From: a virus
Taxonomy: Duplodnaviria > Heunggongvirae > Uroviricota > Caudoviricetes
DNA: 64,000 nt
Strand: one strand, 5' to 3'
IMG/VR virus record: IMGVR_UViG_3300028563_000009
Shown: piece by piece, positions 139-39,580 of the stretch
Layout of the letters: the number at the start of each line of letters is the position of its first letter
How positions within the stretch are numbered: the stretch's first letter is position 1
The notes under the pieces: model-generated
The model's database searches: none
What the model was told of the DNA's origin: nothing
The model's input: the letters and a program-made list of their open reading frames with translations, nothing else
Position numbers and translations under genes: made by a program

Positions 139-465
139 TTAGGGAGTCAAGTACTCTATCTTGAGATTCTCTTCCCTCATTTGTTCGTCAACTGCCCGAT
201 CTACTTCTCGGAGCTTGCCGAGTCTTCGTAGGGTTTCGACTTTATGCCACGCTTTGAACTCCGGAGTTTCAGCACATTTTCTAAAAGCTTCTTGCTTATT
301 CCGGAACTGATCTCTACCGTCACGGTGTTCCGCCCTTGCACCAGATTCGGGATGTATGCACCTGACTCCATTCTGTTTAGCGTTACGATGTTGACCCCCC
401 TTGCCCCCCGTGCAGAACGTCTGGAACTCGAAGTCCTTCGCTGTCAGGCTGAATAACAGTGTCAT
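139..465 (-). CDS. release-factor GGQ-domain protein, ArfB/PrfH-like peptidyl-tRNA hydrolase (108 aa)
   Basis: Motif TGGKGGQHRNAKQNGVRCIHPESG matches class-I RF/ArfB GGQ loop; GGAG RBS 7 nt upstream on minus strand. Confidence 0.6.
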   Translation of the reverse strand: MTLLFSLTAKDFEFQTFCTGGKGGQHRNAKQNGVRCIHPESGARAEHRDGRDQFRNKQEAFRKCAETPEFKAWHKVETLRRLGKLREVDRAVDEQMREENLKIEYLTP

Positions 466-1849: not shown

Positions 1850-2012
1850 CCCAGTCCGACTGCCGATGTGGAAAACGCCGCAATCCACTCATTCTAAACG
1901 ATTTATTTTTTCTCTTGACACGTTTTTGCCTTTTCCTGTAGTCTCGTTTCAGCCGCAATTGAACGCGGCAATTCTGGTACGCTTCCCAACTGAAAGCAAG
2001 GAGAATCACCAC

Positions 2013-2423
2013 ATGGCCAATATGATCGCACCGAAGAACATGCAAGAGGCATTAGCGTTAATTGAACAAATGCGGAAAGAGGCTGAGGAACGGAACTCTG
2101 CCAAAGTCACTGTGAAAATGGCCGATTATGGCGCTGGTACCATCTCCCTGTATGGTATCAATCGCTTTCCACTGTCGGTTTATCCCTCGCAGATTGCCAC
2201 GCTGAAAGCCGCTATCCCGGACATGGAAGCTTTTGCGGCGAAGTATTCCAATGAGCTTCGTTGTGCCGCGTATGCTGCTGACTTCGCAAAAAAGTCAGGC
2301 GCGAAATGGCCGTCCAATGCGAAAGAAGACGACCCATCCGTCGTGGCATATAAGGCGAAGTATACCGAAGGGTACGCGCAAGCCATGAAGGATGCCACTC
2401 TGGTATCGTCTAAGGCGAAGTAA
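2013..2423 (+). CDS. hypothetical protein (136 aa)
   Basis: ATG 2013 preceded by AAGGAGAA; in-frame part of ORF 1815..2423. Confidence 0.6.
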   Translation: MANMIAPKNMQEALALIEQMRKEAEERNSAKVTVKMADYGAGTISLYGINRFPLSVYPSQIATLKAAIPDMEAFAAKYSNELRCAAYAADFAKKSGAKWPSNAKEDDPSVVAYKAKYTEGYAQAMKDATLVSSKAK

Positions 2424-2473: not shown

Positions 2474-2594
2474 GCCTCTAAAACTTCGTCTGTGCAAGTT
2501 CGCCCCCGCGCTGCGATATGCATTCCCGGCCAAGTAAAGCGATTTATAAACTGCCGATGACGGGTCGGTGTAGGGGAATACACCGGAAAATTAG

Positions 2595-2610
2595 GTAAAT
2601 CGATTTACCT
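2595..2610. promoter_or_regulatory. 16-bp perfect palindrome GGTAAATCGATTTACC (operator-like; recurs at 2760, 4296, 13724, 13785, half-site 14650)
   Basis: Self-complementary; related copies all lie in intergenic/promoter-proximal DNA. Confidence 0.5.
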
Positions 2611-2792
2611 TCGAGGGGACTGGTAACTGGTATCGGGTAACCTTGCGGCTGGTTACTTACCATGTCCATTCTGCCAGAGTCGAGTAGACTGCCATGCCGT
2701 GTGTGGGGTAGTAGTGCAGGTAGTCATGCCGTGGCGCGGCGAACTGTGGAAAACGCGCAGTAAATCGCTTTACTCGCGGGTGAAAATTTTTG

Positions 2793-4226: not shown

Positions 4227-4326
4227 TGCTTATGTGCTGCTGGTATGCCGTTTTCCGGTTCCGGACGGCTGTGGAAAACTTGCCGCGCACCGTTAGAAAA
4301 TCGATTTACTTGCTGAAAAAATTTTT

Positions 4327-4355
4327 GTTGACAAAGGCTTTTTTGCGGCGTATCG
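4327..4355 (+). promoter_or_regulatory. sigma70-like promoter TTGACA-17-TATCGT
   Basis: Same upstream architecture as promoter 2793 (CTGTGGAAAAC .. AAATCGATTTAC .. aaaaatttttgTTGAC). Confidence 0.6.
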
Positions 4356-4396
4356 TCGGCTCAATCGCCCGATTCAGGGGCGACTACGGAGGAAGT

Positions 4397-5089
4397 ATGA
4401 GCACACTGCAATTGGTGAGCTTTGCCGATATAAACGAAGGTAGACGAGTGTTGGGAGAAAAGGCTTCCGCACTTGGATACCACAAACTGAAGCAGGCGAC
4501 AGGGAGTAACCTGTTAACTACTCTACGAGACTTGGATATCCGTCCATTCACGTCGGGTAGTGTGGACACCTACAAGGCCAGCAAAGAGAAGATTGGTTGG
4601 TGGTCTGGTAAGGTGTGGGCTGTTCGCTTGCTCGTGCTGAGTTTCCTGTTGGCTCCCCTCATGGCCAAATCCATTCAATTGAGCGACTTAACCTACGACG
4701 CTGCACCCTTCTCCGGTCTTGCCTCCCATCACATCCTTGTGCCTCTGGGCATCACTCTCACCATTCTGACAGGCGTGGCCATCGTCCTGTGTCAGATAAT
4801 TGGGTGGGTAATGCTGGTCGGCGAAGATTCACGAGGAAAACGATCCAAAATCTCTTGGCGTAGGTATACCATACAGGATTACCAAGGCACTATACCTGAG
4901 TTCGCCCTGAACAAGATGGTACAGATTGCTGCGGCCTACCCCGAGGCCAGATTCCAAGTCGATCAACTCGAAAAACACACAGAGAACTGGATTGTGCGGG
5001 AGCCTGACCCCTTTCTAGTTGTTTACGCAGGCAACGAACAGTACTACATCGAAGTCTGGGATGAGAAGGAGTACGAGAAGACCCTGTAA
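4397..5089 (+). CDS. membrane protein (230 aa, 2-3 TM helices)
   Basis: GGAGGA RBS; hydrophobic segments LLVLSFLLAPLMA, ITLTILTGVAIVLCQIIGWVMLV. Confidence 0.55.
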   Translation: MSTLQLVSFADINEGRRVLGEKASALGYHKLKQATGSNLLTTLRDLDIRPFTSGSVDTYKASKEKIGWWSGKVWAVRLLVLSFLLAPLMAKSIQLSDLTYDAAPFSGLASHHILVPLGITLTILTGVAIVLCQIIGWVMLVGEDSRGKRSKISWRRYTIQDYQGTIPEFALNKMVQIAAAYPEARFQVDQLEKHTENWIVREPDPFLVVYAGNEQYYIEVWDEKEYEKTL

Positions 5090-5432: not shown

Positions 5433-5708
5433 ATGGTTCCGGAGTTTTTAGCTGATTGTTTGGGTCATCTTCCGTACCACCAAATAGCGGAACTGACTAT
5501 TTGGATGGACAAGCAGAAAGACGTTAGACAGTCCATCGAACAGATCATAAGTGAAAGTCTCCCCACCGTGGAGGAAGAAATCCCAGAAACTAATCCTGCA
5601 TGTCTCGGCAAGGGGAATAACAACGTCGTAGATTGTACTTGCAAAACGATTTACCGACGACTAAGGAGGGCGAAGGATGGAAGTTCCGGTATTGAAAGAG
5701 TGGATTAA
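5433..5708 (+). CDS. hypothetical protein (91 aa)
   Basis: AGGAGG 6 nt upstream of ATG 5433. Confidence 0.45.
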   Translation: MVPEFLADCLGHLPYHQIAELTIWMDKQKDVRQSIEQIISESLPTVEEEIPETNPACLGKGNNNVVDCTCKTIYRRLRRAKDGSSGIERVD

Positions 5709-6075
5709 AGCCTTGCGGAGTGGAAATTACGCGCAAGGTAAGACCCGTCTTCATTCGGAGTCGGGAGGGAAGCATACCTATTGCTGTTTAGGTGTGCTCT
5801 GCGAGTTGGCCGTGAAGGAGAAAGTTATTCCTCCTCCGGATTCTCTGGCTATGGAGGTAGATGGGAAAACCATTACCGTCTACTATTACGGGGATGATAA
5901 CTATGTCGATGCCAAGAACATTTGTATTCTTCCCCGTAAGGTGAGAAACTGGCTGACCGAGGGTCTCAGGTATGGGTATTTTCCCACCTCTGTACTCATT
6001 AACATGAACGACAGGACAGAGAATCCTCAGTCGTTCGAACAGATTGCGGACTACTTGGAGAAAGAATGGAGCTAA
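5677..6075 (+). CDS. paralog family 1 member (YCCLGVLCELAVK motif), 132 aa
   Basis: AGGAGG RBS; shares W.KAL.SG.Y.QGK..YCCLGVLCELAVK core with 6066 and 12164. Confidence 0.6.
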   Translation: MEVPVLKEWIKALRSGNYAQGKTRLHSESGGKHTYCCLGVLCELAVKEKVIPPPDSLAMEVDGKTITVYYYGDDNYVDAKNICILPRKVRNWLTEGLRYGYFPTSVLINMNDRTENPQSFEQIADYLEKEWS

Positions 6076-6509
6076 CGACAGATTCCAGACCAGCAGAGAT
6101 TGTTAAGGCGTGGGTAGCAGCGTTGCTATCCGGGGAGTACAAACAAGGGAAATTCTATCTTCGACATGAAGATAAGTACTGCTGCTTAGGCGTGCTGTGT
6201 GAGTTGGCAGTCAAAGCCGGGGTTATCGTGCCGGGGAAGCCTTCCCTCGGTAGCGCCGATAAAGTCACAGTGTATGTGGGGGAGACTAAAACCCTTCCAC
6301 GCGAGGTGGCGTGGTGGGCGGGTGTTGGCGCAAACCCTCAAATGTCAAGCACGGGTCATACCTTGGGATACCTGAACGACAATGGCATGAAGTTTCCGGA
6401 TATAGCAGAACTTATCCGGGCAAACCTCCATCCGGAACCGGAAAGTGTCTCTCAACCTGATGGGTTCGGTACTTACGACCCCAACGACAACGGAAATCAA
6501 CCTATTTAG
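6066..6509 (+). CDS. paralog family 1 member, 147 aa
   Basis: Identical YCCLGVLCELAVKAGVI motif. Confidence 0.6.
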   Translation: MELTTDSRPAEIVKAWVAALLSGEYKQGKFYLRHEDKYCCLGVLCELAVKAGVIVPGKPSLGSADKVTVYVGETKTLPREVAWWAGVGANPQMSSTGHTLGYLNDNGMKFPDIAELIRANLHPEPESVSQPDGFGTYDPNDNGNQPI

Positions 6510-9974: not shown

Positions 9975-10003
9975 TTGACTGTGGAAAACTTTTCGTGTAT
10001 CGT
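9975..10003 (+). promoter_or_regulatory. sigma70-like promoter TTGACT-17-TATCGT
   Basis: Spacer contains GTGGAAAAC motif; upstream aaaaattttc tract. Confidence 0.6.
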
Positions 10004-10231: not shown

Positions 10232-11752
10232 ATGACGACAGCAGTTGAGCATTTGAAGTCCTATGGGTTGAAATCTCTCCCCGGTTTTGCTTCTTCGGCA
10301 GAGAACATTCTGTCTGGTTGGATAACAGGAAAGGATTTTTCCCCAAGAGCAGTAATTGGATTGTCCAGAGCGGGGCTGATGGGGTATATCATCACCAAGT
10401 ATGTTCTGGGCCGACACGATTACGGGATGGAGCCTAACGAGCTACAGTACGTCTGTAATTTTCTGTTAAGGAATTATCGAGTAAGGGATACCCCTGAATT
10501 TGAGAACTACACAGGCGACGAGGCACAGAACAAGCGCATTGATATGGCTTTGTCGCTGGTCGGGGGAATTCATCCAAATGGCACCGAATTCGGGCAAGGG
10601 GCGTGTAACAATTTCTTCTCGGGCCATGTAGATTTTAGCATTCCCAACGTCCTCCGGAAGACGAAAATTGCGATAATCGGGCATGGGGCTGCTGGCATCA
10701 TACTCCAGAGAGCCTTAACCTTTCATGGTTTTAGCCCCATGATATTCGAGAAAGCACACTCGTTGGGGTTGTGGCAACAAGAGAACGTCTACAAGCGTTC
10801 TAGAAACAACCCTAAGGTGCTTAGCGTGTTAGGCAACACTCTCGACAAGGCTCCGGGGCCGGGGAATCACGTTAAGAATCTCTTGGAGAACCTAGCTCCC
10901 GGCATAAGTAAGTACAACGTCAAAGGTGTTAAAAAGTCTGGCGACGGGTATTTGGTGCATTACGACAACGAGTCTGTTTATGAGGCTAGCATCGTGATTA
11001 ACTGTTCTGGGATTGGCACACCCAAATCCCCTCACGACCCGTTAAAAATGATTACCAATGCTACTGCGACTTCGTGCGGGGAGCGTTGGCAGCGGGAGCT
11101 TAAAGCCGGAGAGGAGCATCGACAGATGTTTATATTCATCGGGCTAGGCAACTCCACAGCAGAAATGCTTCGTCAAATCCACGTCCTACAGGACAAAGGA
11201 TCGGATTGCGATTACCGAATCCTTACTCATTACCCCGAGGAGAGCGTCCGGAACCCGAATGACACGATAACGACAAAACATGGCAAGTATCGTGTTTTCA
11301 GGGATTTAAGCCTCCCAAACCTCACCTCTTTCCAAGGTGATTTACCGGACTCTCGCTCTGACTACTATAGAGCTTTGAGAAACGGTAAGATTATCTCAGA
11401 TGTAGTTCACTGGGATAAAAGTAGTACCGGTTGCGTCTTATACCAGACCCGCCCCCGTCGTATCTCCAAGTATATCAAGGCAGACAAGCTTTTCTGCCTG
11501 ATTGGATACAGGAATTCGACTGTCAGTGCTCTCGGGGTCTCAAGTAGCTACTACGGCCCCGTCCTTGATTACGATGGGGAAGTTATCGACAGCGAAGGGG
11601 AGAGGTTGAAGGGTTACTACTGTTTTGGGGCCTGCGCTGCTTCTCGGGGGGATAAGAATGCGATTGTCCTGCCCGGTATGTTGTTCAGGCTGCATGACTT
11701 GGTTCCCTCCATCATCATGAGAGCAGCGGAGACTGTGCTGGATAGTTTATGA
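10232..11752 (+). CDS. FAD/NAD(P)-binding oxidoreductase (two dinucleotide-binding motifs), 506 aa
   Basis: KIAIIGHGAAGIIL (GxGxxG) and FIFIGLGNSTAEML; AAGGAG RBS. Confidence 0.55.
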   Translation: MTTAVEHLKSYGLKSLPGFASSAENILSGWITGKDFSPRAVIGLSRAGLMGYIITKYVLGRHDYGMEPNELQYVCNFLLRNYRVRDTPEFENYTGDEAQNKRIDMALSLVGGIHPNGTEFGQGACNNFFSGHVDFSIPNVLRKTKIAIIGHGAAGIILQRALTFHGFSPMIFEKAHSLGLWQQENVYKRSRNNPKVLSVLGNTLDKAPGPGNHVKNLLENLAPGISKYNVKGVKKSGDGYLVHYDNESVYEASIVINCSGIGTPKSPHDPLKMITNATATSCGERWQRELKAGEEHRQMFIFIGLGNSTAEMLRQIHVLQDKGSDCDYRILTHYPEESVRNPNDTITTKHGKYRVFRDLSLPNLTSFQGDLPDSRSDYYRALRNGKIISDVVHWDKSSTGCVLYQTRPRRISKYIKADKLFCLIGYRNSTVSALGVSSSYYGPVLDYDGEVIDSEGERLKGYYCFGACAASRGDKNAIVLPGMLFRLHDLVPSIIMRAAETVLDSL

Positions 11753-12163: not shown

Positions 12164-12550
12164 ATGAAAACAGAAGTGGGCAAGAAGTGGGTGGAGGCAC
12201 TACGAGGCGGGGAGTATTTACAGGGGATGAGAGCCTTGCGAATTGGAATGGGAACTCCCGAAAACCCTTTTAGGTACTGCTGTCTCGGGGTTCTGTGCGA
12301 GTTGGCTGTGAAGGCCGGGGCCATTGCTCCTGCTACGTTTGATTCGGCTAGTAGTCAGGCCCGGTACGAAAACAATCCTAGCTACCTCCCCGACCAAGTA
12401 ATGCAGTGGGCTGGGCTAGATGACTCTAACCCCCTTGTCGGAGAGCGTTCCCTCAGTTATGCGAACGATAAAGACAAGGTGTCTTTCGATGGCATCGCGG
12501 ATTTGATCGAGCAGCATCTAATACCGAAGGAGGAGAGTGTTGCCAAATGA
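12164..12550 (+). CDS. paralog family 1 member, 128 aa
   Basis: WVEALRGGEYLQG..YCCLGVLCELAVKAGAI. Confidence 0.6.
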   Translation: MKTEVGKKWVEALRGGEYLQGMRALRIGMGTPENPFRYCCLGVLCELAVKAGAIAPATFDSASSQARYENNPSYLPDQVMQWAGLDDSNPLVGERSLSYANDKDKVSFDGIADLIEQHLIPKEESVAK

Positions 12551-13683: not shown

Positions 13684-13714
13684 CCCTCAGCCTTCGGGCT
13701 GGGGGATTTTTTTG
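13684..13714 (+). terminator. rho-independent terminator
   Basis: CCCTCAGCC-ttcg-GGCTGGGGG + T7. Confidence 0.85.
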
Positions 13715-13723
13715 TCTTTAAAA

Positions 13724-13800
13724 GGTAAATCGCTTTACTAGTTTTCCGGCTTGCTGGGGTCCACGCCGCGTGCGGTGTCGAGTAGGTAAATCGATTTATC
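13724..13800. promoter_or_regulatory. two copies of GGTAAATCG(C/A)TTTA palindrome between convergent terminators
   Basis: 13724-13738 and 13785-13800. Confidence 0.4.
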
Positions 13801-13895: not shown

Positions 13896-14171
13896 TTACT
13901 TAAAGGGCACAGAAGGAATTGAGTTGTCTCTACGAGCCGGGACTACAAACAACCCGCTATGGTAGTTAGACGGGTACCGAATAGAGACGTTTGCCATTAG
14001 AGGCACATCGTTTCCATCGGGGTCTTTGTCATACAAGCCCGGTAAAGGCTCGTACCAGCTTGTTCCCGCGACCTGAACAGTCTTGACGCGAGAATTCCTA
14101 ATCATACTAGGCTTGACTTCTAGAACGAAGTTGCCTTGTTCGTTTCGTGCGAAGGCTACTATCTGTCCCAT
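13896..14171 (-). CDS. paralog family 2 member (91 aa)
   Basis: MGQIVAFARNEQGNFVLEVKP..VAGTSWYEPLPGL; AAGGAG RBS (rc). Confidence 0.55.
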   Translation of the reverse strand: MGQIVAFARNEQGNFVLEVKPSMIRNSRVKTVQVAGTSWYEPLPGLYDKDPDGNDVPLMANVSIRYPSNYHSGLFVVPARRDNSIPSVPFK

Positions 14172-14189
14172 ACATCTCCTTTCGCACCG

Positions 14190-14504
14190 TTAAGCGGTTT
14201 TGCCCATTGAGGTTTGGGCCTTCTTCTTCAGGAGTTCAGCGGTAACTGGCTGACTCTTCTTGGTCGGCGAGGAGCTTCCCGTCTTGTACGGGTTGCGGTA
14301 GCGAACCTGAATTGCAGCCGTGAGAGGAACGGAACGACCTTCGGGGTCTTGTCCAGTAAGGTTAACCAAAGGCTCAGCCCACCCATTTGTCCCGGCAACC
14401 TGAACGGTGTCTCCGGACTTGCTGGCACGCTGGCTATCCAATGGTTTGAACTCGATAACGAAGTTTCCATTTTCCTTTACGGTTGCTGATACGATCTGCG
14501 CCAT
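14190..14504 (-). CDS. paralog family 2 member (104 aa; ORF extends to 14633 but ATG 14504 has AAGGAG RBS and matches paralog N-termini)
   Basis: MAQIVSATVKENGNFVIEFKP..VAGTNGWAEPLVNL. Confidence 0.5.
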   Translation of the reverse strand: MAQIVSATVKENGNFVIEFKPLDSQRASKSGDTVQVAGTNGWAEPLVNLTGQDPEGRSVPLTAAIQVRYRNPYKTGSSSPTKKSQPVTAELLKKKAQTSMGKTA

Positions 14505-14954
14505 TTTATTGCTCCTTTGTTGCGGGTTTTGGGCTATAGTCGAATGGTAGCCTACCACTAGCCCGGAAAGTTTTTCCGAACTGTTCTCCACTTTATATTT
14601 TTCGATTTTCGCCGTCCGGTCAATTGTGCTCACTTTGAAGAAAATGTGCGTAAATCGTTTGTTTTCAACAGTTTACGGCGCGACGCTCGACACTCGACGC
14701 TCGACATTCGAAAAAAGAGGCTGGAGACTCGGGTGTATAGGCTCTAGGTACGTCACTGGTCGTATGTCTGTTGCTCTCGGCGGCAGAGTCGCGCAAAGAG
14801 CCATGCCGTTTAGGTGCTCCCCCCGTACTGAGCGGGAGACACAATTTTTTTCGGCGGCGGCAAAAAATTTTTCGCACTATATATGGGCGACCGTGTGGAA
14901 AACTTTTCTTCGAGCTTTTGCAAATTGTTGAAAATAAAGATTTTAAAAATTTTC

Positions 14955-20190: not shown

Positions 20191-20289
20191 ATGAGCAAAT
20201 CTCCAAAGTTGAAATGGACGCCCTCTCTAGAGCGCAGACTCGCTGATCTCATCGAGAGCAACCCCCCGAAATTGTACAAGGAGGAATAA
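20191..20289 (+). CDS. small hypothetical protein (32 aa)
   Basis: Strong AAGGAGGAGG RBS; TAATG into next gene. Confidence 0.4.
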   Translation: MSKSPKLKWTPSLERRLADLIESNPPKLYKEE

Positions 20290-21239
20290 TGTCAGTTAGT
20301 TTCATCGAGGAAGCAGGAGTAGAACGGACAGCCAATGGAGGCTACACCGTACTCCCTGAGAATGTGATCCTAAAACCCGAACTCAGCGGGAGAAGCGAAG
20401 AAACAGATGTGACGGAGTTAGCAGAAGACATTCAACACAGGGAACAGTTGGTTCCGGCTGTCTGCTACAAGGATGAAGATGGGTGGCCTGTACTTATCGC
20501 TGGCCATCGCCGCATCCGGGCGATTATGCTCCTGAATAAGGGAGTAAAAGACCCCGAAAAGAAAACCCGGCTCAAGTTTAACTACAGTAAAGTGAAAGAC
20601 TTGGAAGAGGCTCTCGACATTACTGTGGCTGAAAACCGGAACCGGACAGACACAAACTCTTTGGATGACGCTTACAACATTAGCGTTTATACCAATCGCT
20701 TTGGGAAGGGTTTGGAGGAAATCGCCAAGAAGTACTTCCCCGGCGCGGCCAGTGACGTGAAGAAGTTGGCTTCAGCCGTTCAATGGGTGAAGGATAGACA
20801 GAAGCTTCTGGAACTCTCCCCCGAAGCTCAGGAAAAACTGAGAAAAGGAGAATTCTCAACCTCTGCTGCTCAGCAATTGGCCAAACTACAGCCAACAGAG
20901 CAGAACAAACTTCTGACCAAAAAAGCAGAAGAGGGGAAGAAGCTGAAGGTAAACGATGCCAAGGAAGCTGTTGCTGCGCGAAAGCCTGAACGCAATATCT
21001 CGGACAAGTCTCCAGCGAAGTTGCTGAAAAGGTTCAAGATTCTCGCGGAAGTGGCCGGTGCTCTGGCGGCAGAAGACATGGCGAAGGACTTCAAACGCTC
21101 TCGTGATCCGGAAATGGTTAAGGAGTTTGCTCCGCAGCTTCTGGTCATGTGCTACCGTCTAGGGGTGGAGCTTGAACCACACTCCCTCAAGTGGGCGGAG
21201 CAGAACAAGAGCATCAAGACTGCGATGGATAACGTTTAG
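20289..21239 (+). CDS. ParB-like nuclease/partition domain protein (316 aa)
   Basis: ParB N-domain signature VLIAGHRRIRA; Lys-rich helical C-terminus. Confidence 0.6.
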   Translation: MSVSFIEEAGVERTANGGYTVLPENVILKPELSGRSEETDVTELAEDIQHREQLVPAVCYKDEDGWPVLIAGHRRIRAIMLLNKGVKDPEKKTRLKFNYSKVKDLEEALDITVAENRNRTDTNSLDDAYNISVYTNRFGKGLEEIAKKYFPGAASDVKKLASAVQWVKDRQKLLELSPEAQEKLRKGEFSTSAAQQLAKLQPTEQNKLLTKKAEEGKKLKVNDAKEAVAARKPERNISDKSPAKLLKRFKILAEVAGALAAEDMAKDFKRSRDPEMVKEFAPQLLVMCYRLGVELEPHSLKWAEQNKSIKTAMDNV

Positions 21240-22311: not shown

Positions 22312-22595
22312 TCCTTCGGAGGTTCTTCCACCGGGTGTCCCTTAAAGACGCCCGGTTTTTTTGTGCCTTTAAGTGCCTCAATAATGGCCTTTTCTTTGTC
22401 CGTCTTGCGACGAGGGGATGGGCGAAGGGGGATAGCCTCAAGCGAGAGCTTCGCGGCCTGTAGACGCTCCGCAATCGAGGCGTCCGGGTCCTCCAATATG
22501 CCTGCCAATGCGGAGAGCAGCCGATTAGGATACGAATGCCCACGTTTCTTTTTGGTTCTCTTTGGTTCTGTTTCAGGATTACTTTTTTCTAACAT
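22308..22595 (-). CDS. basic ORF immediately downstream, likely frameshifted C-terminal DNA-binding part of the GIY-YIG enzyme
   Basis: +1 frame relative to 22579..23055, junction at A6 run; K/R rich; combined length ~250 aa like I-TevI. Confidence 0.35.
   Translation of the reverse strand: MLEKSNPETEPKRTKKKRGHSYPNRLLSALAGILEDPDASIAERLQAAKLSLEAIPLRPSPRRKTDKEKAIIEALKGTKKPGVFKGHPVEEPPKD
22331..22362 (+). terminator. rho-independent terminator
   Basis: CCGGGTGTC-ccttaaa-GACGCCCGG + T7. Confidence 0.75.
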
Positions 22596-23055
22596 CGCTT
22601 CTTCTTAGATACCCCTCTTCAATCAACACATTTTCGTAGATCATTCTTTCTCCTTCCGGAATTTTAAAAATATCATAGTCTATGAAACGCTTCAGAGATT
22701 TATTCTTGGCCATGTTCCTTATTAACCCGCGCACTTCGTCCTTGGTATACTTACCAGTGTCGGGGTACCCCCTGTGGGTTCCCCCAGCGTGCCTATTGTA
22801 TCCTAGAGATTTTCTACGGGTTCCTAAAAAAGATATAAAAAACTTCTCCGCTCTGTTCATGGCCTCGAAACTAGGGCATTCACACAAAGCCTCGATGGTA
22901 AAAGCTTCCTTTCCGTAGCGATAAATGTCGTCCTCAAGCTCCTTGTTTGGCCGGTAGTAACAGTGCATTCTCCATCTTTCGTACAGAGGCATGATGGTTT
23001 GACCCACGTACCTCTTGCCGTTTTCTTTGCAGGTTATTAAGTATATGGTTTTCAT
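22579..23055 (-). CDS. GIY-YIG homing endonuclease catalytic domain (158 aa)
   Basis: KTIYLITCKENGKRYVGQT (GIY..YIG), conserved R/E/N; minus strand inside + strand block, AT-rich. Confidence 0.7.
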   Translation of the reverse strand: MKTIYLITCKENGKRYVGQTIMPLYERWRMHCYYRPNKELEDDIYRYGKEAFTIEALCECPSFEAMNRAEKFFISFLGTRRKSLGYNRHAGGTHRGYPDTGKYTKDEVRGLIRNMAKNKSLKRFIDYDIFKIPEGERMIYENVLIEEGYLRRSDVRKK

Positions 23056-27202: not shown

Positions 27203-27424
27203 ATGAGCAGGCTAACTTTACAGAAAAGAAAGGACCCCCGAGACGACCAAGATACTTGGGGGTTCATGCTGGGAGACCTATTCTACGCCTTCTCGGACTT
27301 CGGAGGAAGCACCAGTAAGGAATTAGCTACTATAGGTCTGGACTGGATTAAACAGGGATACGGGAATCCTTTCGACGGAGAGGACCCTAATAACTACGGA
27401 CCAGTGTTGGAGGAGATAGAATAG
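27203..27424 (+). CDS. hypothetical protein (73 aa)
   Basis: Coupled start. Confidence 0.45.
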   Translation: MSRLTLQKRKDPRDDQDTWGFMLGDLFYAFSDFGGSTSKELATIGLDWIKQGYGNPFDGEDPNNYGPVLEEIE

Positions 27425-28566
27425 TGAAGGCAATCCTGCTTCAGGGTATGGCGTTCGGCGACGAGAGCAAAGGCGCGACAGTCGATGCTCTTTGTCGTAA
27501 GTTCCCTGTGGATCAGATAGTTCGGTATAATGGCGGTCCACAGACGGCCCATAACGTAGTAACACCACAAGGAGTACATCACACTTTCAGCCAGTTCGGG
27601 TCTGGAATGCTAGCTAACTCTACTGTTAAGACACACTTATCTCGTTTCATGTTGATTAACCCGTTTAGTATGATGAGGGAAGCCGCCGCGTTGCCTACCT
27701 ATACTCCGGTCTGGAACCGAGTTACCATAGACAGACAGTGCGTAGTCATCACTCCAATGCACAAAAGGCTTAATCAGTTAAGAGAGAAGGCAAGACGGGA
27801 AGGTGCCCACGGAAGTTGTGGGGTCGGTGTAGGGGTTGCCAGAGAACTCAGCCTGAGGTATGGTGATAGAGTGTTGTTAGTGGAAGACTTCGCGGACGAA
27901 AACAGAATCCACATGAAGCTATTGTTCATGTTCTCGCAGTTAGGTTTCGAGATAGACAGGCTACAGAGAGAACTGAAGATTCCGGATATGGACTTTGATT
28001 TCGAGCACATGGCCCGTGCTTACAAAGATTTCGGAAGTTACGCAAAAGTCGTTGACAAACTGGAGCCGAGTGACTTAATGTTGTTTGAAGGCGCTCAGGG
28101 CGTCCTGTTGGATGAGCGGAAGGAATTCCTGCCACACAACACTTGGACAAACTGCACCTTCGGAAACGCAGACAACCTCTTGTCAGAAGTCGGATGCAGT
28201 GATAGATTAAGGATTGGGTGCTTCAGATCGTACTTCACGAGGCACGGCCACGGGCCATTCCCAACGGAAGACGTGGACTTGACAAAATCCTTTAAGGAAG
28301 CGCATAATGGAACCGGAGAGTTTCAGGGTGCTTTTAGGTGTGGTAAATTTGATTTTGATTTAGCCAAAAAAGCACTTGACATTGTTGGCGGTTTGGATTA
28401 TCTTTCTATTAGTCACTTGGATCGGGCCTCGTTAGAAGTGGGCGATGAAATTTCAAGCACTCTAGGAGTTCCGGTAGGAGTCTGGGCCACGGGTCCCACA
28501 TCAAACCACCGTGGTTTTAACTGTGAGTTGATCGACAGACTTGACAAGGTTTTGGAAACGTGTTAA
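27424..28566 (+). CDS. adenylosuccinate synthetase (PurA) family enzyme, PurZ candidate (380 aa, GTG start)
   Basis: GDESKGATVD P-loop region, RYNGGPQTAHNV, AHGSCGVGVGVARE; GGAGGAG RBS. Confidence 0.65.
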   Translation: MKAILLQGMAFGDESKGATVDALCRKFPVDQIVRYNGGPQTAHNVVTPQGVHHTFSQFGSGMLANSTVKTHLSRFMLINPFSMMREAAALPTYTPVWNRVTIDRQCVVITPMHKRLNQLREKARREGAHGSCGVGVGVARELSLRYGDRVLLVEDFADENRIHMKLLFMFSQLGFEIDRLQRELKIPDMDFDFEHMARAYKDFGSYAKVVDKLEPSDLMLFEGAQGVLLDERKEFLPHNTWTNCTFGNADNLLSEVGCSDRLRIGCFRSYFTRHGHGPFPTEDVDLTKSFKEAHNGTGEFQGAFRCGKFDFDLAKKALDIVGGLDYLSISHLDRASLEVGDEISSTLGVPVGVWATGPTSNHRGFNCELIDRLDKVLETC

Positions 28567-31578: not shown

Positions 31579-32461
31579 GTTGGCTCTGGCAGGATTCCTA
31601 ATGACTTTCCTCGCCGGTTGCGGAGTAGATAGAATTGGACCCGGCCACGTCGGTATTAAGATCAACATGGCTGGCGATAACAAAGGTGTGCTGGATACAC
31701 CAGTGAGTACGGGATGGGTGTTTTATAACCCCCTCGGCACCACGGTGATCGAGTACCCAACCAACATGAAGAATGTAGTGTGGACTAAAAGCCTCGATGA
31801 AGGCAACGCGAAGGACGAAAGCATTACGTTCACCAACAAAGAGAGCATGGTGGTTAACGCCGACTTCTCTCTGAACTACTACCTACTTCCTGAGAAGGTT
31901 CCGGCCTTTTATGTGAAGTTTCTCCAGAGGGATTTGGACGATTTCAGCAACGGGTACCTTCGTACCATCGCAAGAAATTGCGTGAACGACAGTGCTGGTA
32001 AGTATGAGATCGCACAGATCATGGGGGACAACACTGCCTTCCTGCTAGATAGTAAGGCATGTATTAACAAAACTCTCACGTCTTATGGTATCTTTGTCGA
32101 TAGCTTTGGCTTGATTGGTGCTCCGCGTCCTCCTCCGGTGGTAATCGAAAACATCAACGCCAAGATTCAGGCGCAACAGATCGCTCTCCAGAAGCAGAAC
32201 GAACTCCTTCAGGTTCAGGCAGATGCCGCGAAACAGGTGGCCGCTGCTGAAGGTAAGGCTAAGTCTATGGTCACTGAGGCCAACGGAGAAGCGGAAGCTA
32301 ACCGTATCAGAGCAGCTAGCATTACCCCGGCTATCATCCAGAAGCTTTCTCTGGAGAACCAGCACGACGCTATCTGGCGTTGGGATGGACACATGCCAAC
32401 CACTGTAGCCAACGGCGATAAGGGGGGACTGTTGTTCAACATCCCTACGGACAGTAAGTAA
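31565..32461 (+). CDS. SPFH/band-7 domain lipoprotein (298 aa)
   Basis: Lipobox FLAGCG; SPFH core plus coiled-coil QAQQIALQKQNELLQVQADAAKQ. Confidence 0.55.
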   Translation: MNLVKLALAGFLMTFLAGCGVDRIGPGHVGIKINMAGDNKGVLDTPVSTGWVFYNPLGTTVIEYPTNMKNVVWTKSLDEGNAKDESITFTNKESMVVNADFSLNYYLLPEKVPAFYVKFLQRDLDDFSNGYLRTIARNCVNDSAGKYEIAQIMGDNTAFLLDSKACINKTLTSYGIFVDSFGLIGAPRPPPVVIENINAKIQAQQIALQKQNELLQVQADAAKQVAAAEGKAKSMVTEANGEAEANRIRAASITPAIIQKLSLENQHDAIWRWDGHMPTTVANGDKGGLLFNIPTDSK

Positions 32462-32847
32462 TGGGTATTGAAGAAGTAGTAGAAAAAACAGTAACCATGA
32501 GCTTTGAGGATTTTGGGTACTTGTCCAAGACTCAAAGATTCTGGGACGAACAAGCTGAGTGGTCCCGAGCCACGTTTGGTAGCGATACCGAGCGTGGCCC
32601 ACTCGGACCTCTAAAGCATCTAGAGAAGGAAACCGAGGAAGCACGGCAGTCTTGGATTAAGCAAGACATTCCGGAAGCTAAGGTTGAGATCGCTGATTGT
32701 CTTTTCCTTACATTCGATGCGGCACGTAGAGCAGGCATGTCTTTAGACGACCTTCTAGACACAGCTTTCCGGAAACTGGAAATTAACAAACAACGCGAGT
32801 GGCAGAAACCAACGAACGACGGGCCAGTGGAGCATGTGAGGGAATGA
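32461..32847 (+). CDS. MazG-like nucleotide pyrophosphohydrolase (128 aa)
   Basis: LKHLEKETEEA .. EIADCLFLTFDAARRAGMSLDDLLDTAFRKLEINKQR (EExxE..ExxD). Confidence 0.55.
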   Translation: MGIEEVVEKTVTMSFEDFGYLSKTQRFWDEQAEWSRATFGSDTERGPLGPLKHLEKETEEARQSWIKQDIPEAKVEIADCLFLTFDAARRAGMSLDDLLDTAFRKLEINKQREWQKPTNDGPVEHVRE

Positions 32848-38212: not shown

Positions 38213-38664
38213 TGTCGAAGATGAATAGGTTGGGTAATGTTACCAACAAGTATCAAGGGGATTTCAAAAGAGTTCTATGTGTTTGTTCGGGAGGGATACT
38301 TAGATCGCCTACCACTGCCGTTGTGTTATCTCAACCTCCCTACAACTACAATACCAGAGCCGCAGGAACAGACCAAGAGTTTGCCCTCGTGCCTGTCGAT
38401 GACGTTCTCATTGAGTGGGCAGACGAGATCGTGTGCATGGAGAAGGAGCACGAGGAAGCGTTAAGAAGTAAGTTCAAGATCGAAGCTCCCATCTACGTGC
38501 TGGGTATCGAAGATAGGTATCCTTACAGAGACCCCCTGCTAATCAGCCTTATCACCCAGAACTACAATGACATACAGATAATGAAGATGGGACTGGGGCC
38601 TAAGTATACGGTAGGGGACCACATCAACGAGAAAGGTTTGAAAAAGCTAGATGAAGAAGGATAA
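38212..38664 (+). CDS. low-molecular-weight protein tyrosine phosphatase (150 aa)
   Basis: P-loop VLCVCSGGILRSPTA (C-x5-R). Confidence 0.6.
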   Translation: MSKMNRLGNVTNKYQGDFKRVLCVCSGGILRSPTTAVVLSQPPYNYNTRAAGTDQEFALVPVDDVLIEWADEIVCMEKEHEEALRSKFKIEAPIYVLGIEDRYPYRDPLLISLITQNYNDIQIMKMGLGPKYTVGDHINEKGLKKLDEEG

Positions 38665-39580
38665 TCCTTTGTTCGCCATAGCAGCCGACAACTACGTGAA
38701 TGAAATCTTGGGGTTGAACAAGTACGGCAGCTTTAAGTCTAACAAAAGAATAGTCAAACATCTAATACAAGAGTTCGGTCACAAGCGGGTGCAGAGCGTA
38801 ACGCGCCAAGATATCCAGAGGTATATCGGTAAGTTAAACGAAACAATGGGCACTGAGTATCTCCGCCATCACCTCAGTACGTTTCGTGGTATAATGGAGT
38901 ATGCCGACGACGACTGGGTAATGCCAAGGGTAAAACTGCCCAAACGAATCAAGCCGAAGCAGGATTTTTACTCGTTCGAAGAAGCCCGAAAACTGATGGA
39001 AATAACCTCTGGTCAGGATAAGGTTTTGGTCATGGTACTGGCAGAGACTGGTTGTAGGTTAGGGGAAGCATTGGCTTTAACCCCGGATGATATAAAACCG
39101 TACGAGGTCAACATCACTAGGAACGTGTACGAGGGGTTCGTGCAGGATACACCGAAGACAGATTCCAGTATCCGGAAAGTTACAATCTCTGAAAGACTTT
39201 ACAATCAGATACTTACACTGAAGAGAAAACAAAACGAGTTTATTTTCCAGAGTAAGACCGGGAGGCCGGAGTGGCCACAGATTCTAAGTGTAAGATTCCG
39301 GGAGATTTGTGACAAGCATTCGGTGGAATACAAAGGGTTCCACGCATTCCGCAGAGGGAACATCACAGAGTTGTGTACGGTAATTGGAATCCCTGAACGC
39401 ATCGTGGGTGTTAGGGTCGGGCATTTATCAAGCGGCACCACCCTCGGGGTGTATTGCAAAACTTTGCCGGGGTGTGATAAAATCTGGATTCCAGAGATTG
39501 AAAAAAGATTGTACTTGACAGAAGACAAACGAAATGATAGCGTAATTAGAGAGGAAATAAATGGCATTACCGACAATTAA
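38651..39580 (+). CDS. int: tyrosine recombinase / integrase (309 aa)
   Basis: LAETGCRLGEAL (box I R), HAFRRGNITEL (H-x-x-R), LGVY. Confidence 0.65.
   Translation: MKKDNPLFAIAADNYVNEILGLNKYGSFKSNKRIVKHLIQEFGHKRVQSVTRQDIQRYIGKLNETMGTEYLRHHLSTFRGIMEYADDDWVMPRVKLPKRIKPKQDFYSFEEARKLMEITSGQDKVLVMVLAETGCRLGEALALTPDDIKPYEVNITRNVYEGFVQDTPKTDSSIRKVTISERLYNQILTLKRKQNEFIFQSKTGRPEWPQILSVRFREICDKHSVEYKGFHAFRRGNITELCTVIGIPERIVGVRVGHLSSGTTLGVYCKTLPGCDKIWIPEIEKRLYLTEDKRNDSVIREEINGITDN

Follow-up and report, generated by a model that had tools for sequence, protein, structure and literature searches.

What binds a short palindrome that recurs through the early control regions of an uncultured phage, and to what effect? 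The DNA in question is a stretch of 64,000 nucleotides (hereafter the window) of IMG/VR record IMGVR_UViG_3300028563_000009, a member of the Caudoviricetes, and the palindrome, GGTAAATCGATTTACC in its perfect form, lies in the gaps between the small genes at its left end. That the palindrome is the binding site of a dimeric regulator of early transcription is a reading that is well supported, but only indirectly. It rests on the confinement of the motif to non-coding DNA, its conservation in relatives with proteins of 29-75% identity, its fixed distance from -35 hexamers and the presence of the identical sequence beside LacI-family genes in bacteria.

Sixteen sites from this phage and from its relatives were used to build a position weight matrix, and a scan of the 64 kb at a threshold of at least 16 bits returned seven sites (16.4-27.3 bits), the next best match having 10.9 bits. 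These are AGTAAAGCGATTTATA (2533-2548, 20.3 bits), the perfect GGTAAATCGATTTACC (2594-2609, 27.3 bits), AGTAAATCGCTTTACT (2759-2774, 25.5 bits), AGAAAATCGATTTACT (4295-4310, 23.9 bits), TGCAAAACGATTTACC (5640-5655, 16.4 bits), GGTAAATCGCTTTACT (13724-13739, 25.7 bits) and GGTAAATCGATTTATC (13785-13800, 24.6 bits). An earlier note on this DNA had already reported the copies at 2594, 2759, 4295, 13724 and 13785, and its list stands, the last four together with site 5640 being 1-3 changes away from GGTAAATCGATTTACC. That note lacked the sites at 2533 and 5640, the partner motif and the paired module with its core, both described below. Site 5640 is the weakest of the seven, lying just 5′ of the ribosome-binding site of gene 5677-6075, and its membership of the set is uncertain.

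With up to three mismatches, GGTAAATCGATTTACC has 6 matches in the window where 0.27 are expected, a number reached in none of 100 shuffles. By our own gene calls, under which 12.4% of the window is non-coding, all seven sites are non-coding (chance approximately 0.124^7 = 5e-7), as the earlier note had held. One public annotation places an open reading frame (ORF) of 91 amino acids (5433-5708), for which no homolog was detectable, across site 5640. A similar density of the motif inside genes, which the same note had named as the observation that would speak against a regulatory role, is clearly not found, as no site within coding regions scores above 10.9 bits. All seven sites are confined to the first 14 kb of the window, and none was found in the 5.6 kb upstream of it.

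The position of the palindromes relative to promoters is regular. Two promoters of the early region, P2793 (2780-2821, plus strand; UP-like tract GTGAAAATTTTTG, TTGACG at 2793-2798, 17-nt spacer, TATGAT at 2816-2821) and P4328 (4315-4356, plus strand; UP-like tract, TTGACA at 4328-4333, 17-nt spacer, TATCGT at 4351-4356), are alike in having an A/T-rich UP-like tract, the hexamer TTGACR, a 17-nt spacer and TATNNT. The centers of sites 2759 and 4295 lie 26.5 and 25.5 bp upstream of the first base of their respective -35 hexamers, close to the 25 bp first estimated, which places both sites at approximately -61. In four promoters from three phages this distance is 24.5-26.5 bp. The remaining strong sites form two pairs, 2533/2594 and 13724/13785, each with a centre-to-centre spacing of 61 bp. 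The first pair lies 3′ of a terminator (2443-2464), with the centre of its second member 165 bp from that of site 2759, and the second lies between convergent terminators (13691-13705, plus strand; 13878-13859, minus strand), an arrangement that the earlier note had recognized. No consistent helical phase was found among the site spacings of 61, 72, 79, 165, and 303 bp.

The promoter-associated palindromes are accompanied by a second motif, the box TGTGGAAAAC, with five copies in the window against 0.74 expected, all on the plus strand and all at early promoters. In all five copies the reverse complement, GTTTTCCACA, is an exact match to the DnaA-box consensus TTWTNCACA, and the box suggests that early transcription may integrate two host proteins, DnaA being the second input. 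Two copies lie upstream of palindromes, at 2745-2754 (4 nt upstream of site 2759) and at 4270-4279 (upstream of site 4295). Another, at 1867-1876, opens the promoter region (1867-1920, plus strand) of gene 2013-2423, the product of which is referred to here as gp2013; it is followed by the half-site TTCTAAACGATTTATT (1892-1907), the right half of which is perfect, and by TTGACA (1915-1920). The other two are found at promoter P9975 (9975-10003, plus strand), where the box sits within the spacer (9980-9989) and there is no palindrome, and at promoter P14955 (14894-14983, plus strand), where it lies upstream (14894-14903) and there is no good palindrome.

Related phages were found through homologs of a ParB-like protein encoded in the window, one of them, L030, being from the 112-kb IMG/VR contig 3300036893_000013. 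A search of metagenomes with the composite pattern of box and palindrome gave 39 matches, three of them phage contigs, namely L047, which is the same phage, and the relatives L051 and L062; the other matches are mostly chance occurrences or bacterial operators. Nothing was found when relatives were sought with the early proteins 4397-5089 and 10232-11752 and with an alignment of gp2013. The proteins that the window has in common with L030, L062 and L051 are only 29-75% identical. L030 is syntenic with the window, with proteins of 30-72% identity (71% for the homolog of 961-1269), and the homologs of gp2013 in L062 and L051 are only 29-35% identical.

Six palindrome sites are present in L030. 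They occupy the divergent promoter region of the early genes, the DNA following the homolog of gene 2013-2423 (a pair), position -61 of a promoter with the same order of box, palindrome, UP-like tract and TTGACA, and the DNA upstream of the homolog of gene 15037 (a pair). Three sites are found in L062, two of which form a pair with a spacing of exactly 61 bp (a spacing thus found twice in the window and again in this relative), together with four tandem boxes of the TGTGGAA type. L051 has one strong, one weak and one degenerate site, with a degenerate pair approximately 61 bp apart, and its boxes comprise two forward copies and one reversed copy. The box arrays of L051 and L062 thus have 3-4 copies, at a spacing of approximately 11 bp. 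Alignment of the window with the three relatives reveals a conserved module consisting of gene 2013-2423 and its terminator, a palindrome, the core CGGGTC(C)GGTGTAGGG, a second palindrome, GGTAAC/GGTTAC repeats, boxes, a further palindrome and a promoter. In the window the core, CGGGTCGGTGTAGGGG, occupies 2561-2576 (plus strand). The window, L062 and L051 all have the pair after the gp2013 gene and its terminator, with the core enclosed by it and with boxes, palindrome and promoter downstream. A short-repeat array of GGTAAC, GGTA, GGTTAC and TTACC (2617-2665, plus strand) follows the pair, and similar arrays take the same position in L030, L062 and L051. The 16-mer has remained near-intact while the proteins and the surrounding non-coding DNA have diverged, which argues for selection on the motif itself.

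The form of the motif points to a family of regulators. A tabulation of the 12 sites of the window and L030, with which the 16-site matrix agrees, shows G2, A4-6, C8, G9 and T11-13 to be invariant, while positions 7 and 10, which flank the central CG, vary (T/G/A and A/C), giving the form G-T-AAA-N-CG-N-TTT-A-C. The arrangement AAA-N-CG-N-TTT with variable positions beside the CG is characteristic of operators of the LacI/GalR family, and the motif has their 14-18-bp palindrome, central CpG, symmetric A/T-rich arms and tolerant CG flanks. Viewed against known LacI/GalR operators, the phage sites have the same perfect palindrome of 14-16 bp, the invariant central CpG, the AA(A)/TT(T) arms and the free base on either side of the CG. 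They differ in being spread over several early promoters and one terminator-flanked gap instead of one operon and in being always partnered with the TGTGGAAAAC box, and the regulator would have to be supplied by the host, as the examined phage DNA carries no LacI-family gene.

A search for the exact palindrome RGTAAATCGATTTACY, with each bacterial species represented by a single genome, found it at a minimum of 120 loci; the chance expectation is approximately 550 in 596 Gb, and most of the loci are expected to be chance occurrences. Among the matches listed, a LacI-family gene is present in 14 of 120 loci, and in 9 of the 120 the palindrome precedes the start of such a gene by no more than 300 bp; it stands at the 5′ end of LacI-family genes on Variovorax, Flavobacterium, Vibrio, Lachnospiraceae, Hyphomicrobiales and Amycolatopsis contigs, and three loci (Variovorax, Flavobacterium rivuli and L170) have two palindromes beside the LacI-family gene, with transporter or glycosidase genes adjoining. 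For three of the palindrome-adjoining genes the LacI and Peripla_BP domains of Pfam were confirmed. At these loci the palindrome is the presumptive operator of the adjoining gene, and in many bacterial phyla the sequence is placed where the operator of a LacI-family protein would be expected. On four contigs of metagenome-assembled genomes (MAGs) of Acidobacteriota type (L092, L097, L103, and L145) it lies just 3′ of a promoter-like sequence of TTGAC type.

The phage DNA examined comprises approximately 70 kb (the window and 5.6-5.7 kb upstream) of a genome of approximately 115 kb. A LacI helix-turn-helix (HTH) profile, built from the LacI-family proteins of the bacterial palindrome loci, had no match among all ORFs of at least 30 amino acids in the window and the 5.7 kb upstream (best E-value 0.19), and no LacI domain is listed in the precomputed Pfam tables, which cover approximately -5.6 to 56 kb. 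Since the palindrome has the form of a LacI/GalR-type operator and the examined phage DNA encodes no LacI-type protein, the most likely occupant of the sites would be a LacI/GalR-family regulator of the host, a proposal put forward tentatively and at somewhat less than even confidence. The earlier note had proposed a dimeric transcription factor of phage or host: location, conservation, -35 spacing and LacI adjacency lend the first part indirect support, and on the second the LacI evidence favors the host, with the HTH-bearing ParB-type protein of the phage still a candidate.

If such a regulator does bind, the arrangement of sites offers a possible mechanism. The operator at approximately -61 lies directly 5′ of the UP-like A/T tract of strong early promoters of sigma-70 type, and a dimer bound there could either touch the C-terminal domain of the RNA polymerase alpha subunit or displace or exclude it. 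GalR acts in this manner from gal OE, at -60.5. The pairs, with their 61-bp spacing and their position 165-300 bp further upstream, could be auxiliary sites for cooperative binding or looping, and the phage sites resemble the GalR system both in the promoter-proximal site centered near -61 and in the further sites 165-300 bp away, which are placed like looping auxiliary operators. They likewise resemble class I activator sites (CRP at -61.5) in adjoining the UP-element position of the alpha C-terminal domain. The enrichment, non-coding location, conservation, geometry and bacterial LacI adjacency are observations, whereas the identity of the binder in this phage is an inference, and whether activation or repression results is not deducible from sequence.

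Several points weigh against this reading. The sites between the convergent terminators have no obvious promoter to control, and LacI-family proteins usually repress from positions overlapping or downstream of the promoter and not from -61, although GalR at OE and the upstream sites of CcpA and Cra are exceptions. A host LacI-family protein with this specificity is presumed, and a gene for the regulator could lie in the remaining ~45 kb of the phage genome. Among the products of the phage itself is a canonical HTH protein of ParB type, for which a cognate site must exist, and a 16-bp palindrome with a central CG is the format of parS too. Finally, 2-aminoadenine, if present in this DNA, would alter the minor-groove contacts at the centre of the operator and in the UP-like tract.

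The ParB-type protein is accordingly one of the rival binders to be weighed. It is an orphan of 316 amino acids (20289-21239, plus strand) in which an arginine patch (AGHRRIRA) and an ENRNR box accompany a ParB HTH domain (PF17762; 25.8 bits, the cut-off being 22.6); its GHRR and ENRNR motifs are conserved in 32 homologs, and the best matches of its profile among solved structures are chromosomal Spo0J/ParB and Noc. No partition ATPase of ParA type is annotated in the Pfam tables for approximately -5.6 to 56 kb, which leaves the protein without a partner. The palindromes could be parS- or OB-like loading sites, from which the protein, once made, would spread or bridge across the early region and silence or organize its promoters as KorB does, an explanation that we consider doubtful. 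The sites for ParB (parS) and for Noc (NBS) are palindromes of 14-16 bp, and the KorB operators (OB) fall into classes I-III. As with OB sites, the phage palindromes are dispersed, some adjoining promoters, even just 5′ of them, and others far from any. The ParB-type protein also keeps company with the motif in one relative. At 72% identity it ranks with the most highly conserved proteins shared by the window and L030, and L030 carries the motif. Set against this, the palindrome is absent within 10 kb on either side of parB in L025, L024 and L072 (ParB 64-67% identical) and in L026-L029 (43-46%), a weak objection given that the far-left early regions lay outside this sample; thus, within the 20 kb sampled, this ParB and the motif do not co-occur in more distant relatives. 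L072 and L027, the two of these loci inspected for boxes, keep TGTGGAAAA boxes. The phage palindrome is moreover unrelated to parS (TGTTNCACGTGAAACA), NBS and OB, and bacteria demonstrably carry the exact sequence next to LacI-family genes. Variable bases on either side of the CG are typical of LacI operators and are not, to our knowledge, a feature of parS. In the comparison with KorB-OB of plasmid RK2 (PMC11790492), no KorA-like partner was identified, and this is probably a lytic phage and not a plasmid; the lack of a ParA partner is shared with Noc and other orphan ParBs (PMC12704722). The fuller proposal, that an orphan ParB-type CTPase of a probably lytic, PurZ-carrying phage with perhaps a 2-aminoadenine genome loads on dispersed 16-bp palindromes and then clamps and silences or organizes its own early region, seems unlikely.

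The other phage protein to be weighed is gp2013 (2013-2423, plus strand), an early protein of 136 amino acids in which a coiled coil precedes a small beta/alpha domain. Recognition of the palindrome by an early phage protein whose fold has so far no known association with DNA binding, with gp2013 as the prime candidate regulating itself and the downstream early operons, is rather improbable. The gene is the first rightward early gene, its promoter has the TGTGGAAAAC box and a half-site (in the window) or a full site (1335 in L030), and it immediately precedes the palindrome cluster in each of the four phages (window, L030, L062, and L051), though early gene order is otherwise poorly conserved. 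This adjacency may, however, be plain conserved synteny, the first early gene having stayed together with the promoter that follows it. The predicted N-terminal coiled coil would suit a dimer (AlphaFold model from a 42-sequence alignment, pLDDT 93), and the family is widespread in the uncultured phages of metagenomes (58 clusters at 50% identity), but the protein matches no family in Pfam or PHROG, and in one member of 1,702 amino acids the domain is repeated 12 times in tandem, an unusual architecture for a protein that binds operators. Its predicted fold found no significant match in PDB or BFVD, and with neither fold nor family match a recognizable DNA-binding fold has been rejected for now. 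That the palindromes are instead part of a replication origin, a recombination site or a modification target (for example of the ATCGAT core) we consider very unlikely. The 430-bp region 2424-2851 does resemble plasmid-type origins in its DnaA-like boxes, iterated GGTAAC-type repeats, A/T-rich tracts and promoter, a tyrosine recombinase is encoded at 38651-39580, and a two-gene cassette adjoining sites 13724 and 13785 is inverted relative to L030. Yet the motif occurs at five or more separate control regions and not at a single locus, and its distance from the -35 hexamers is fixed. About half of the sites lack ATCGAT and have ATCGCT, AGCGAT or AACGAT in its place, so that a restriction or methylation target is rejected, and a 16-bp palindrome without spacer is too short for the core site of a tyrosine recombinase. 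A useful hairpin is not possible with an 8-bp stem of 75% A/T and no loop, and the reading as an intrinsic terminator was likewise rejected, the true terminators being separate (2443, 4197, 13691, and 13878).

Other candidates were considered and set aside. The palindrome formally fits the NtcA site GTA-N8-TAC, and its position at approximately -61 would suit a class I site of the CRP/FNR/NtcA type, but the inner 6-8 bases of such sites are variable and their specificity lies in the outer pentamers, whereas in the phage AAA-N-CG-N-TTT is invariant. Nine exact matches of the 16-mer in IMG/VR are single and unrelated, on contigs of 30-69% G+C, and are attributed to chance. A second palindrome, TCCGGWWCCGGA, is over-represented in the window, with 10 matches at up to one mismatch (721, 4254, 6431, 9103, 11247, 20635, 43154, 46939, 51518, and 61235) against 0.6 expected; these are mostly intragenic, one of them within the ParB-like gene. 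As an alternative parS it was rejected, there being no exact copies in the searched loci of the relatives.

Further elements were noted in the control regions. What the earlier note had described as a half-site at 14650 is indeed present, but it is part of a longer split variant, CGTAAA...TGTTGAAAACAAACGA...TTTACG (34 bp, 14647-14680, minus strand). Genes 14190-14504 and 13896-14171 are driven by a minus-strand TTGACC promoter, from which this variant lies approximately 27 nt upstream. The split element is conserved in L030 at 14013-14046, beside the same promoter. The inversion mentioned above involves this two-gene cassette together with its promoter and the split element (window 13896-14720, L030 14000-15000), and in L030 the palindrome pair lies on the opposite side of the cassette. 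The GGTAAC-type repeats downstream of the first pair resemble the outer arm of the palindrome. Two sets of iteron-like tandem repeats, CTTGCGACA (3.9 copies, 1814-1849) and CGACGCTCGACACT (2.2 copies, or 4.4 copies with a period of 7, 14681-14711), lie in divergent promoter regions and have a common CGACAC core.

As to the phage itself, no near-identical phage was found in GenBank, and its DNA polymerase is at most 36% identical to that of any deposited phage. Identical proteins are encoded on two metagenome contigs of 114,911 bp, which indicates that the window is part of an uncultured phage of approximately 115 kb, and also on contigs from JGI samples 3300028573 and 3300031712. Early genes are read rightward from approximately position 1,900 onward, and a short block ahead of 1,400 is read leftward. 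The initial 20 kb of the window consists of small, mostly orphan genes, followed by tRNA genes and then by genes for replication and nucleotide metabolism, including those for DNA polymerase A, primase-helicase, single-stranded DNA-binding protein, a UvrD-like helicase, ribonucleotide reductase and PurZ. The phage is probably lytic. The PurZ-like homolog of adenylosuccinate synthetase (27424-28566; PHROG 1211, E-value 7e-58) and a MazZ-like dATP/dGTP pyrophosphohydrolase (32461-32847; PF04447) suggest a genome containing 2-aminoadenine (Z).

DUF8296 (PF26948, PHROG 18067) is represented by three paralogues in the window (5677-6075, 6066-6509, and 12164-12550), and the relatives hold further copies, often directly 5′ of the ParB-like gene. 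The tyrosine recombinase lies amid replication genes and, like a GIY-YIG endonuclease (22579-23055, minus strand), has no obvious target site. There is also an RF-1-domain protein resembling ArfB or peptidyl-tRNA hydrolase (139-465, minus strand; PF00472), 75% identical to its homolog in L062. The phage comes from environmental metagenomes (ENA and JGI), and about a dozen of the first 80 matches listed in the search for the exact palindrome are from Acidobacteriota-type MAGs (including L044 2409 and L065 14013), matches which may hint at the host lineage. Phage-like genes, sought in the bacterial palindrome loci in order to identify the host, gave no matches.

Operator sites in the early promoters of phages are a known kind of feature, and phages are known to embed sites for host regulators in their promoters, examples being DnaA at lambda pR and the NtcA and PhoB boxes of cyanophages. 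New here are the particular grammar of the early promoters, the presence of a LacI-type operator in phage DNA that, as far as examined, has no LacI gene, the conserved module with paired sites 61 bp apart and a possible connection to an orphan ParB. For a lineage without a cultured relative, a cis-regulatory grammar of the early region can thus be described, comprising in this order a DnaA-like box, a LacI-type operator, a UP-like tract and a consensus -35 hexamer. The seven sites and those of the relatives provide defined probes for electrophoretic mobility shift assays or DNA affinity purification sequencing (DAP-seq), and the motif may help to infer the host. A 2-aminoadenine genome, if true, would change minor-groove recognition at A/T-rich operators and UP-like tracts, while loading of the ParB-type protein, if true, would be a phage counterpart of the long-range silencing by KorB and would give the common orphan ParBs of phages a testable function. 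Should a LacI-family sugar regulator of the host and DnaA both dock at these promoters, the first transcription of the phage would be coupled to the carbon and replication status of its host, and if the LacI-family protein is a repressor of low abundance, replicating phage genomes would titrate it.

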